Virus record (IMG/VR): IMGVR_UViG_3300028591_000970
DNA length: 18,024 bases
Direction: 5' to 3' (one strand)
Origin: a virus
Within the stretch, counting starts at the first letter, position 1. Each line of letters begins with the position of its first letter. The notes under the pieces are model-generated. The model searched no databases. It saw only the letters and a list, made by a program, of their open reading frames with translations, and was not told the DNA's origin. The position numbers were made by a program, and so were the translations under genes. This document shows, piece after piece, positions 15,242 through 17,895 of this stretch.

Positions 15242-15574
15242 ATGAAAATGTATTATCGTAAAAATGAAATTATTGTAGAAGTTTATCATTTTTTTGAAGA
15301 TAAAACTGCTCTAATTTTTTCTCCTGAATTTGCAGCGAGACGAGGTAATGGATGGGAAAAAGTAAAATTAAGTCAACTTATTCCTTTAGAATATTTTGAT
15401 GAACATGATAAACGTTTTATGTCTAAAACAGAACGAAATAAAATAAAAGAGAGATTAACATTAACAGAAGCCACTTGGACATGCTCAGATGAAATCTCTT
15501 TTAAAGATTTTGATAAAGCTATTCTTCACGAAAGAGAGTTAATGGAGCAAGAGAAAGGAGATAACAATGCTTAA
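15242..15574 (+). CDS. Hypothetical 110-aa protein. Its stop overlaps the RNA ligase start by 8 nt, suggesting translational coupling.
   Basis: ORF track. AAAGGA RBS. TAA stop. Confidence 0.55.
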   Translation: MKMYYRKNEIIVEVYHFFEDKTALIFSPEFAARRGNGWEKVKLSQLIPLEYFDEHDKRFMSKTERNKIKERLTLTEATWTCSDEISFKDFDKAILHERELMEQEKGDNNA

Positions 15575-16805
15575 TCCAAAAACTAACGAAAGAGAACTTG
15601 CATATGTTGTAAAGATTGATAACATTACTCCAATCGAAGGATATGATAGAGTAGAACTTGCTCATGTGGGCGGATGGACTATCGTTGTCGGTAAGGGAGA
15701 ATTTAAAGTAGGTGACCCCGCTATTTACTTTGAGATTGATTCAAAACTTCCTGAAGTAAAACCTTTTACCGATATGGCTTTTCTTGTTAAAAAGAAATAT
15801 CGTGTAAAGACTCAGAAAATGTGTAAATCTATTTCTCAGGGACTTCTTGTCTCTGCTGAAACTATGGGATGGGAGATTGAAGAAGCTCAGTTTGCAGGTG
15901 GAATTAAATATATTGTAGATAACGATGGATGTGTTCATGTTCCCGAAGATGATGAAACTCGTTTTCTTACAAAAGACCTTAATGTAACTTATTATGTTGC
16001 AGAAGATAATACTCGTAAAGCACCTTCTGTAGATAAATATAAGAAAATGGCACAGCGTAACGGTAAACTCTTTGCAAAGCAGCCTTTCCGCTGGCTTATG
16101 AAACGTGATTGGGGTAAGAAACTTCTTTTCGTTTTCTTTGGTAAAAAGAGAGATAAAACAGGTTGGCCTGCTTGGGTAAAGAAAACTGATGAGGAAAGAA
16201 TCCAGAATATGCCTTGGATTTTGACTGATAAATCTCCTTGGATTGCAACAGAAAAGATTGATGGTTCTTCAACTACCTTTACTATTAAACGCGGGAAGTG
16301 GCCTCATAAAAATGAATTTTATGTTTGTTCTCGTAACGTTTGTTTTGATAAACCTGACAAAACATGTTTCTATGATACTAATATTTATACAGAAATGGCA
16401 GAAAAGTATCATATGGAGCACATTCTTACGGAAATGCTAACCTTATTTCCTGAAGCAGAATGGATTACTATCCAAGGTGAAACCTATGGAGCAGGAGTAC
16501 AAAAGAGAGATTATCATCTAAAAGACCATGATTTTATGGCTTTCAACCTTATTACTTCTGATAAAGGTAGATTTAATACTCTTAAAATGAGAGAATTACT
16601 TGAAGATTATTATCGGGTTCCTTGTGTTCCTGTTGTTAATAGCAAATTCATTCTTCCTGATACAGTAGAAGAGTTACTTAAATATGCAACAGATAAATCT
16701 CAAATTGATGGTGATATGCGAGAAGGTATTGTATTCCGCTCTGAAGATGGTAGCAAATCTTTCAAAGCTGTTTCCAATGAATTTCTACTTGCTTATCACG
16801 GATAA
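15567..16805 (+). CDS. ATP-dependent RNA ligase (Rnl-type covalent nucleotidyltransferase with N-terminal OB-like domain), 412 aa
   Basis: Nucleotidyltransferase motif I KxDG: ATEKIDGSS at 16254..16265. Motif IV/V-like: EGIVFRSEDGSKSFKAVSNEF. The N-terminal segment VVKIDNITPIEGYDRVELAHVGGWTIVVGKGEFKVGDPAIYFEIDS is typical of the N-domain of Rnl5/DraRnl-type nick-sealing RNA ligases. Confidence 0.65.
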   Translation: MLNPKTNERELAYVVKIDNITPIEGYDRVELAHVGGWTIVVGKGEFKVGDPAIYFEIDSKLPEVKPFTDMAFLVKKKYRVKTQKMCKSISQGLLVSAETMGWEIEEAQFAGGIKYIVDNDGCVHVPEDDETRFLTKDLNVTYYVAEDNTRKAPSVDKYKKMAQRNGKLFAKQPFRWLMKRDWGKKLLFVFFGKKRDKTGWPAWVKKTDEERIQNMPWILTDKSPWIATEKIDGSSTTFTIKRGKWPHKNEFYVCSRNVCFDKPDKTCFYDTNIYTEMAEKYHMEHILTEMLTLFPEAEWITIQGETYGAGVQKRDYHLKDHDFMAFNLITSDKGRFNTLKMRELLEDYYRVPCVPVVNSKFILPDTVEELLKYATDKSQIDGDMREGIVFRSEDGSKSFKAVSNEFLLAYHG

Positions 16806-16836
16806 TAATAAGGGAGAGATAATCTCTCCCTTATTA
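16806..16836 (+). repeat. Perfect inverted repeat (14-bp arms, 3-nt loop) directly after a TAA-TAA-TAA triple stop. Possible terminator, attenuator or RNA-processing hairpin.
   Basis: TAATAAGGGAGAGA taa TCTCTCCCTTATTA. No downstream U-tract. Followed by RBS GGAGAAAAA for the next gene. Confidence 0.5.
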
Positions 16837-16847
16837 TAGGAGAAAAA

Positions 16848-17348
16848 ATGGAGAAAAATAAATTATACATTATGATAGGTATTCCTGGTTCAGGGAAATC
16901 TACTTATGCAAAATATGCTATTATGAATGATAATACTATCCATATTTCAAGAGACGGAATAAGATTCGCCCTTCTTTCTGATACGGATAATTATTTTGCA
17001 AAAGAAAAACAAGTTTACAAAGAATTTATTAAACAAATTAATGAAAATTTAAAAGAAGGTTATAATGTTATTGCAGATGCAACACATTTAAATAGAAAAA
17101 GTCGTAATGCTCTTTTTCATAACCTTCATATAGATAGAACAAAAGTAACCGTAATAGGTGTATATATGAACACTCCTTTAGAAACATGCCTTGAACGTAA
17201 TGAAACAAGAAAGGGCGGCCGCACCTTTGTTCCTCCGCATGAGGTACATAATATGTATCTTAGAATGGAGCCACCAACTTATAATGAACCTTTTGATTAC
17301 ATATACACTTTTGATGGGAAATCAATAAATCTTTTAGAAAGGAGATAA
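16848..17348 (+). CDS. Polynucleotide 5'-kinase (P-loop, T4 Pnk kinase-domain-like), 166 aa
   Basis: Walker A GIPGSGKST at 16878..16904, followed by an RD-containing segment (ISRDGIRF). This matches the T4 Pnk N-terminal GCPGSGKSTW...NRDD pattern. Small size. Sits between the RNA ligase and the phosphoesterase. Confidence 0.6.
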   Translation: MEKNKLYIMIGIPGSGKSTYAKYAIMNDNTIHISRDGIRFALLSDTDNYFAKEKQVYKEFIKQINENLKEGYNVIADATHLNRKSRNALFHNLHIDRTKVTVIGVYMNTPLETCLERNETRKGGRTFVPPHEVHNMYLRMEPPTYNEPFDYIYTFDGKSINLLERR

Positions 17349-17349
17349 T

Positions 17350-17895
17350 ATGGCTGTTTATTTTACCGCAGACCCACATATCGGACACGATAAGGATTTT
17401 CTCTGGCGTCCGCGCGGTTTTTCTTCAGTTGAAGAACATGATACAGAAATTCTTAAACGATGGAATAGTGTTGTAACTCCAGAAGATACTGTTTATATTC
17501 TTGGCGACCTTTGTATGAGCGGAAACGAAAAAGAATGGAATCGTGTCTATAAAGTATTAAATGGTGAAAAATTTATTATTTGGGGGAACCATGATACAAA
17601 TAATAAACTTAATAAATATCAAACAGAATACGGTATGACATATCTTGGTTTTGCATCAATTTATAAATATAGTAAAAGGAAAATGTTTTATCTTTCTCAT
17701 TATCCTACTCTTGTAGGGAATTTTGAAGAAGAACGTTTCTTTTGGAATCTATCTGGACATACTCATAGTTCTAATAAATTTGAATTTGGACAATATAGTA
17801 TTTATAATGTAGCAATGGATGCTCATAATTGTTATCCCGTATCTATAGAGCAAATAATTAAAGATATTAATAAATATAAGGAGAAGAAAGAATGA
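17350..17895 (+). CDS. Calcineurin-like metallophosphoesterase, 181 aa. Candidate RNA 2',3'-cyclic phosphodiesterase / 3'-phosphatase healing enzyme.
   Basis: Canonical MPP motifs: DPHIGHD (17371..17391), GDLCMSG, GNHD, GHTH. The start is 1 nt after the kinase stop. Confidence 0.65.
   Translation: MAVYFTADPHIGHDKDFLWRPRGFSSVEEHDTEILKRWNSVVTPEDTVYILGDLCMSGNEKEWNRVYKVLNGEKFIIWGNHDTNNKLNKYQTEYGMTYLGFASIYKYSKRKMFYLSHYPTLVGNFEEERFFWNLSGHTHSSNKFEFGQYSIYNVAMDAHNCYPVSIEQIIKDINKYKEKKE

Follow-up and report, generated by a model that had tools for sequence, protein, structure and literature searches.

A candidate RNA end-healing and sealing gene cluster with an Rnl5-type ligase in a TAG-recoded phage

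The window analyzed here, the whole 18,024-nucleotide (nt) stretch of the IMG/VR virus record IMGVR_UViG_3300028591_000970, carries toward its end three consecutive + strand genes, referred to here as the cassette, which are predicted to encode an RNA ligase, a P-loop kinase and a metallophosphoesterase. An earlier note on this DNA, made from its letters alone, had described three separate genes in the order ligase, kinase and phosphoesterase, and the open reading frames (ORFs) bear this out exactly:

15567-16805, + strand: ATP-dependent RNA ligase of the Rnl5 family, 412 amino acids (aa), with Pfam, PHROG and PDB matches.
16848-17348, + strand: stand-alone P-loop kinase of the 5'-OH polynucleotide kinase (PNK) type, 166 aa, with Pfam, PHROG and PDB matches.
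17350-17895, + strand: minimal binuclear metallophosphoesterase of the aq_1665/phrog_547 subfamily, 181 aa.

All three genes start with ATG behind an AGGAG-type Shine-Dalgarno sequence and stop at TAA or TGA. None of them has an in-frame TAG, and they are therefore translatable by the unmodified host system. They belong to a gene block in the standard code that occupies the + strand from about position 11780 to the end of the window. On the minus strand, five large structural or tail-like ORFs between positions 2198 and 11685 can be read only when TAG is taken as sense; these five structural-type proteins span 67 in-frame TAGs, and their own stops are TAA or TGA. With the standard code, ORFs of at least 150 aa make up 0.53 of the window, versus 0.93 with TAG as sense. 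The minus-strand ORF that adjoins this block, at 1-2201, has no TAG and a GC content of 0.36 versus approximately 0.26.

The ligase consists of an N-terminal OB domain, an insertion of approximately 65 aa rich in Lys and Arg, and a C-terminal nucleotidyltransferase domain. Its Pfam matches are PF21189 (PHA02142 OB) at residues 11-95 (6e-20) and PF09414 (RNA_ligase) at residues 224-402 (6e-21), and in PHROGs it matches phrog_968, "RNA ligase" (1e-64). The solved relatives are entries of the Naegleria gruberi RNA ligase (NgrRnl) only, with 5cot aligned over both domains at 3.3e-28. Placement of the OB domain before the nucleotidyltransferase domain defines the Rnl5 family (PMC7261155); this order, which is the reverse of that in DNA ligases, is the one found in the phage protein. 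The score against TIGR02306 (DRB0094; 5e-33, 114 bits) falls below the curated equivalog cut-off of 151 bits, and the ligase is therefore a divergent Rnl5 member. It belongs to Rnl5, a family of RNA ligases that seal nicks, represented by DraRnl of Deinococcus radiodurans and NgrRnl. The Rnl-type ligase with a KIDG motif proposed in the earlier note is thereby given a family; the motif is present as K230-I-D-G, with K230 as the lysine nucleophile, and a DNA ligase identity is ruled out by the Pfam, PDB and NCBIfam matches.

The catalytic residues listed for NgrRnl (PMC7261155) were compared with the phage ligase and 17 diverse homologues, with identities as low as 37% and with Pseudomonas and Arthrobacter phage proteins among them. 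The following counterparts are invariant in the 17 homologues:

NgrRnl Arg4: ligase R9, in the OB domain.
NgrRnl Asp53: ligase D58, in the OB domain.
NgrRnl Arg149: ligase R211.
NgrRnl Lys170: ligase K230, the lysine nucleophile of motif I.
NgrRnl Asp172: ligase D232, the aspartate of motif I.
NgrRnl Glu227: ligase E305, the glutamate of motif III.
NgrRnl Glu312: ligase E386, the glutamate of motif IV.
NgrRnl Lys326: ligase K400, the lysine of motif V.

The OB-domain Lys121 of NgrRnl falls in the region of the insertion, which is unaligned to NgrRnl, and the invariant K157 is a tentative counterpart only. Rnl5 enzymes act on 3'-OH/5'-PO4 nicks with an RNA 3'-OH strand and prefer Mn2+, properties which are predicted for the phage ligase from its family. 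The basic insertion (approximately residues 135-200; EDNxRKAxSVDKYKKMAQR...FFGKKKD), located between the two domains, is a conserved trait of the metagenomic clade that neither NgrRnl nor the Rnl5 proteins of Pseudomonas and Arthrobacter phages possess; a possible role is that of an extra element for binding RNA.

The kinase finds AAA_33 as its best Pfam match (1.5e-20) and phrog_505, "polynucleotide kinase", in PHROGs (3.4e-25). As a single sequence it matches, in PDB, Pnkp1 of the Capnocytophaga Pnkp1-Rnl-Hen1 system (8e-10), the kinase domain of CthPnkp (1e-6) and T4 Pnk (1e-3). A family profile built from 32 homologues and run against PDB returned CthPnkp (7.7e-22), PSTK (6e-19), Pnkp1 (1e-17), T4 Pnk (3e-16) and mammalian PNKP (2e-10), with small-molecule kinases (adenylate, gluconate) at 1e-4 or worse and no Zeta toxin match. 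In Pfam, AAA_33 is matched by all 32 members, Zeta_toxin by 12 of the 32 with far weaker scores, and SKI by one. The P-loop GxxxxGK[ST], the downstream Asp general base with its Arg (D-x-x-R) and the lid arginines that mark polynucleotide kinases are all present: the P-loop G11-IPGSGKS (K17/S18), the motif S34-R-D36-x-x-R39 (SRDxxR), D77, R86 and R121. Of these, G11, K17, S18, S34-R-D36-x-x-R39, D77, R86 and R121 are invariant in the 32 homologues, and residues of the kinase align with K21, D38 and R41 of CthPnkp. The nearest relatives in cultured phages are annotated PNKs beside RNA ligases, including T4-like pseT and PNK-HD fusions of Bacillus phages. The small P-loop polynucleotide kinase (GIPGSGKST) of the earlier note is hence upheld, and the protein is best placed, as judged by its matches and motifs, in the 5'-OH polynucleotide kinase clade of T4 Pnk and bacterial Pnkp.

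Other identities for the kinase were rejected. Matches to Zeta toxin and shikimate kinase are weak or partial, that to 5-hmdU DNA kinase (HMUDK) spans only 34 residues in three of the 32 members, and PSTK, despite a score near that of Pnkp, possesses a C-terminal tRNA-binding domain that is absent here.

The phosphoesterase matches phrog_547 (8.7e-46) and contains D8-P-H, G52-D, G79-NHD and G136-HTH, so that the calcineurin-like motifs recognized earlier (DPHIGHD, GDxxxxG, GNHD and GHTH) are present, with all metal ligands kept and the binuclear site intact. Its core of approximately 180 aa, its metal motifs DxH, GD, GNH[DE], H and GHxH, and its fold are those of the aq_1665 type. The GDxxDRG and GNHE motifs of the lambda-phosphatase type, which bacterial Pnkp carries, are missing, and a Pnkp-type (lambda-phosphatase-like) identity is ruled out by both sequence and fold.

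Metagenomic homologues of the ligase number 7,996 at E <= 1e-10. Gene order was counted in 80 IMG/VR viral loci and ORF clusters in 89. The three genes follow one another as ligase, kinase and phosphoesterase on one strand in 51 of the 80, which extends the separate-gene cassette of the earlier note to a large phage clade. Clustering placed the kinase in 65 and the phosphoesterase in 71 of the 89 loci, and in one locus (L088) the trio is contiguous at identities of 37% (ligase), 34% (kinase) and 52% (phosphoesterase). Between ligase and kinase the median gap in relatives is 465 nt, versus 35 nt between kinase and phosphoesterase, where most loci have gaps of 5-60 nt. In 23 loci, an RlaP nucleotidyltransferase (PF10127, "RNA repair pathway") is encoded within 6 kb of the ligase, and in 13 the same holds for a Thg1-like enzyme of tRNA 5'-end repair (PF04446, 6e-28), with examples of the two in L044 (1661-3219), L051, L064, L069 and L046-L048. 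These neighbors argue for RNA, probably tRNA, as the ligase substrate in this lineage in preference to DNA repair. The Rnl5 gene of the Arthrobacter phage Talia1610 has its place within an array of tRNA genes. Where the kinase-phosphoesterase pair is missing, the ligase is often followed, 0.2-2.5 kb downstream, by a lambda-phosphatase-like metallophosphoesterase (cluster c13) instead.

The genes had earlier been called tightly coupled, with spacings of 1-40 nt. This fits the kinase and the phosphoesterase, which are 1 nt apart (TAA-T-ATG, as reported), but not the ligase and the kinase, which are separated by 42 nt; the ATGA overlap mentioned with it is real, although it occurs between the phosphoesterase and the small ORF that follows, orf42. 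Most of the 42-nt gap is filled by one element:

16805-16837, + strand: perfect hairpin of 15 base pairs (bp).

This hairpin has a folding energy of -21.3 kcal/mol (z = -4.98), which none of 200 shuffles equals. It overlaps with the stop codons of the ligase, and 5 nt lie between its end and the kinase Shine-Dalgarno sequence. Having no clean T-run, it could act as a partial terminator, a site of processing or an element that stabilizes the mRNA. Hairpins of unrelated sequence, some with T-runs, follow the ligase stop in the close relatives L001-L011, and extra ORFs are inserted at this site, namely, a zinc-ribbon ORF of approximately 100 aa in 42 of the 89 loci and a 64-aa ORF in L001, L003 and L011. 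The ligase-kinase junction is the plastic point of the cluster. The 1-nt gap on one side and the hairpin-filled 42-nt gap on the other suggest that the kinase and the phosphoesterase are translationally coupled and that the ligase is set apart.

The cassette is probably a phage RNA end-healing and sealing pathway that is expressed from the standard-code block. It would act after metal-independent host ribonucleases, such as anticodon nucleases and other ribotoxins, have left 2',3'-cyclic-phosphate and 5'-OH ends. The metallophosphoesterase, presumed from its conserved adjacency to the kinase to be the 3'-end-healing enzyme, would convert the 2',3'-cyclic-phosphate or 3'-phosphate end to a 3'-OH; the kinase, in line with its homology and complete set of catalytic residues, would phosphorylate the 5'-OH; and the ligase, adenylylated on K230, would seal the 3'-OH/5'-PO4 break that its assignment to Rnl5 suggests as substrate, while the ends are held in duplex, e.g., in tRNA stems. 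The kinase and the phosphoesterase would thus act as a translationally coupled healing pair, with the ligase as a separately terminated or attenuated upstream gene, and in relatives the module may be extended by the zinc-ribbon protein, RlaP and Thg1-like enzymes. In comparative-genomics surveys, phage ATP-dependent RNA ligases are described as partners of PNKs and phosphoesterases, occasionally calcineurin-like ones (PMC7824862). The earlier note had proposed tRNA repair; the family assignments agree with this function, but anticodon-loop repair is plausible and not established, as Rnl5 enzymes seal duplex nicks.

The three chemical steps are common to T4 Pnkp (pseT) and Rnl1, which repair PrrC-cleaved tRNA-Lys and are phage-encoded too, and the T4 Pnk kinase is homologous to that of the cassette by the family profile. 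However, the T4 kinase is fused to a HAD (DxDxT) phosphatase, whereas the cassette has a separate binuclear metallophosphoesterase and a stand-alone kinase, with none of the HAD 3'-phosphatase fusion that marks T4 Pnkp. The T4 ligase is of the Rnl1 type, specialized for tRNA loops, in contrast to an Rnl5 nick sealer, and the T4 repair genes are unlinked whereas those of the cassette are clustered. The closest solved kinase relatives come from bacterial Pnkp/Hen1 and Pnkp1-Rnl-Hen1 of Clostridium thermocellum and Capnocytophaga gingivalis. As in the cassette, a kinase is paired with a metallophosphoesterase for end healing in the bacterial Pnkp systems, and the ligase of Pnkp1-Rnl-Hen1 is a separate polypeptide. 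Nevertheless, Pnkp/Hen1 systems are recognized by an Rnl4-type ligase and the 2'-O-methyltransferase Hen1, while the cassette ligase is of the Rnl5 type and no methyltransferase ORF is present in the + strand block at 11780-18024. The analogy that had been drawn with T4 and Pnkp/Hen1 is accordingly apt as a functional parallel, but in phosphatase subfamily, in ligase type and in the absence of a HAD domain the cassette falls outside both groups.

DraRnl and NgrRnl have the domain architecture and catalytic residues of the phage ligase, which differs from them in its extra insertion; a dedicated kinase/phosphoesterase partnership has been shown for neither. The gene numbering in PMC5397189 places rnl of D. 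radiodurans a few genes away from one for a 5'-OH polynucleotide kinase. An Rnl1-type ligase gene is followed, in Bacillus phages such as vB_BanS_Sophrita (gp164-gp165), by an overlapping gene for a PNK-HD fusion, an arrangement known from annotation alone. The order of ligase then kinase is common to both, and the Sophrita PNK is the closest kinase relative in cultured phages (33% identity); however, its 3'-healing HD domain is fused to the kinase, and its ligase is of the Rnl1 type. The closest kinase in cultured phages, a PNK-HD fusion, is coupled with a ligase of the Rnl1 type, and the comparison shows, by analogy, a kinase clade that would pair with interchangeable phosphoesterases and ligases. 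In fungal and plant tRNA ligase Trl1 and in the baculovirus AcNPV Pnk-ligase, ligase, kinase and phosphoesterase occur in the same order as domains of a single polypeptide. The phosphoesterase of Trl1 is a 2H cyclic phosphodiesterase and that of AcNPV a HAD phosphatase, and their ligases are Rnl6- or Rnl1-like. The cassette differs from every characterized system in using an Rnl5 nick sealer as the sealing enzyme and a separate aq_1665-type metallophosphoesterase gene as the 3'-end module; the strategy is already known from T4 and bacterial Pnkp, and the gene combination is new.

Several observations weigh against an RNA healing and sealing pathway. The strong hairpin and the variable insertions separate the ligase from the kinase, and in approximately 18 of the 80 relatives the ligase has neither partner within 6 kb. 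Rnl5 enzymes require a nicked duplex, and physiologically the family has so far been tied only to DNA repair after irradiation (PMC5397189). The aq_1665 subfamily of metallophosphoesterases has no known activity; the motifs (GDLCM, GNHD) and the nearest folds after aq_1665 (LpxH, YfcE, the nuclease MPE and Mre11) look more diesterase- or nuclease-like than the lambda-phosphatase-type domain that Pnkp has. The phosphoesterase family also occurs without kinase or ligase in approximately 1,600 cultured-phage records and in unrelated contexts in Firmicutes chromosomes; in bacterial genomes it was found as a lone gene in unrelated contexts, with no fixed genomic partner.

The family phenotype of Rnl5 leads to the first alternative, repair of nicks in DNA or RNA-DNA hybrids, in which phage DNA with ribonucleotides, 3'-phosphates or 5'-OH groups at its breaks, arising, e.g., from host nicking or replication, would be mended and the metallophosphoesterase would serve as a nuclease or clean 3' ends. 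DraRnl, with which the Rnl5 family was founded, joins nicks that have RNA as the 3'-OH strand, whatever the 5' strand, and in its absence the reassembly of the genome after irradiation is delayed (PMC5397189). The phosphoesterase is structurally similar to the nuclease MPE and to Mre11/SbcD, and it has weak similarity to PdeM, a ligase-associated DNA-damage endonuclease (TIGR04123, 4e-5, below the cut-off). In relatives, the cassette is followed by genes for a GyrB-like topoisomerase and RNase H; however, these replication genes may just reflect early-region layout. The RlaP and Thg1-like genes that recur beside the ligase are markers of tRNA and RNA repair, and the nearest kinase relatives are RNA-repair PNKs. 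On this evidence, we regard DNA repair as an unlikely role for the cassette.

It is also improbable that the three proteins have independent functions and are neighbors through shared early-gene expression only, in which case the phosphoesterase might, e.g., be an anti-defense enzyme that cleaves small phosphodiesters, nucleotide second messengers among them. Such a role would suit a family that is far commoner in cultured phages than its partners here (1,597 records versus 332 for the ligase and 292 for the kinase) and that usually has neither of them nearby, and calcineurin-like phage phosphodiesterases have been proposed as counter-signaling enzymes (PMC7824862). The hairpin and the insertions, which split the ligase-kinase junction, would fit as well. 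However, the adjacency and order of kinase and phosphoesterase persist down to approximately 35-40% identity, mostly with the short gaps given above, and such persistence is unexpected for unrelated early genes in mosaic phage genomes.

The third alternative ties the trio to the phage's own tRNA supply, instead of or besides counter-defense repair: it would serve maturation or quality control of phage tRNAs, including a TAG suppressor, e.g., by removing the 2',3'-cyclic phosphates that ribozymes or RNases leave in processing, and would thus be linked to the code switch. Cleavage by ribozymes like that of hepatitis delta virus (HDV) leaves the upstream product with a 2',3'-cyclic phosphate. The late genes of the window need TAG as sense, and a relative with a contiguous trio, L119, encodes a CUA-anticodon tRNA (7832-7907; an amber suppressor that ARAGORN calls Pyl) 3.3 kb downstream of the phosphoesterase. 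In addition, a published survey reported "RNA ligase, DRB0094 family" to be 140-fold enriched in phage genomes with tRNA-adjacent HDV-like theta ribozymes (PMC10879173). If the link existed, tRNA processing intermediates, including the amber suppressor, would be healed and sealed, and the timing of the code switch would depend on RNA repair. However, the window contains no tRNA gene or ribozyme; a motif pattern validated on published examples found no theta ribozyme in the window and 125 loci (1.22 Mb), and Rfam gave no HDV-like match. Most tRNAs near the cassette in relatives already encode CCA, and similar healing and sealing genes are found in phages that are not recoded, such as T4 and Bacillus phages. 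Since TAG recoding is common across the whole clade, its co-occurrence with the cassette is inseparable from shared ancestry and is uninformative. The link between cassette and recoding that the earlier note had suggested finds no footing in the sequences examined, and we consider it very improbable. In L042, a phage tRNA array without encoded CCA contains a group I intron at 922-1231 (RF00028, scoring 50 bits, at the gathering cut-off).

For the favored RNA healing and sealing pathway, the principle is known from T4 and Pnkp/Hen1, and the advance would be incremental and not conceptual. Rnl5 ligases are widespread, yet they are without an assigned RNA substrate or pathway. In this very abundant lineage of gut and rumen phages, a PNK-type kinase, a metallophosphoesterase, RlaP and Thg1-like genes are persistent neighbors of Rnl5, and the lineage is thus a concrete setting for asking whether Rnl5 seals in an RNA healing-and-sealing pathway. 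If the proposed pathway is correct, it would provide the first function for the aq_1665/phrog_547 metallophosphoesterase family, which occurs in approximately 1,600 sequenced phages, and the cassette is a candidate counter-defense module against tRNA- or RNA-cleaving immunity in Firmicutes. A gut or rumen phage that infects Firmicutes is what the strong Shine-Dalgarno sites point to, as does the binning of related contigs together with Clostridia, Lachnospiraceae and Bacilli from rumen and gut. No cultured phage with DNA-level similarity to the window was found.

The cassette is flanked by the following features:

14927-14962, + strand: intrinsic-terminator-like hairpin with a 15-bp stem and then a T-run, 3' of a vault-like gene.
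15242-15574, + strand: orf110, a small protein of 110 aa, with an 8-nt overlap between its stop and the ligase start (ATGCTTAA).
17892-18020, + strand: orf42, an ORF that is small and hydrophobic, with an ATGA overlap at the stop of the phosphoesterase.

The protein orf110 had been suggested as an accessory factor, to be checked. It has 55 homologous clusters, all of approximately 110 aa and without Pfam domains, and no match in Pfam, PHROG or NCBIfam; its structure model (predicted local distance difference test, pLDDT, 83; predicted template modeling score, pTM, 0.48) matched no PDB fold below E = 0.1. Since it is present in only 11 of the 89 loci and has no recognizable fold or family, the suggestion is not sustained: orf110 is a real conserved protein and a variable neighbor, not a core component. 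The downstream orf42, found in 12 loci and conserved among the closest relatives only, is probably outside the repair chemistry.

The hairpin at 14927-14962 is the likely upstream limit of the cassette transcription unit. The gene that precedes it (12421-14919, + strand) encodes an 832-aa protein with a major-vault-protein shoulder domain (PF11978, 6e-22), a Vault_3 repeat and an SPFH/Band-7 region, and homologues of this protein lie upstream of the ligase in 16 of the 89 related loci. In the 195-kb relatives L046-L048, an adenylosuccinate-synthetase-like ORF with a GDEGKG motif (approximately 12799-13182) could be a PurZ-type enzyme for a modified base.

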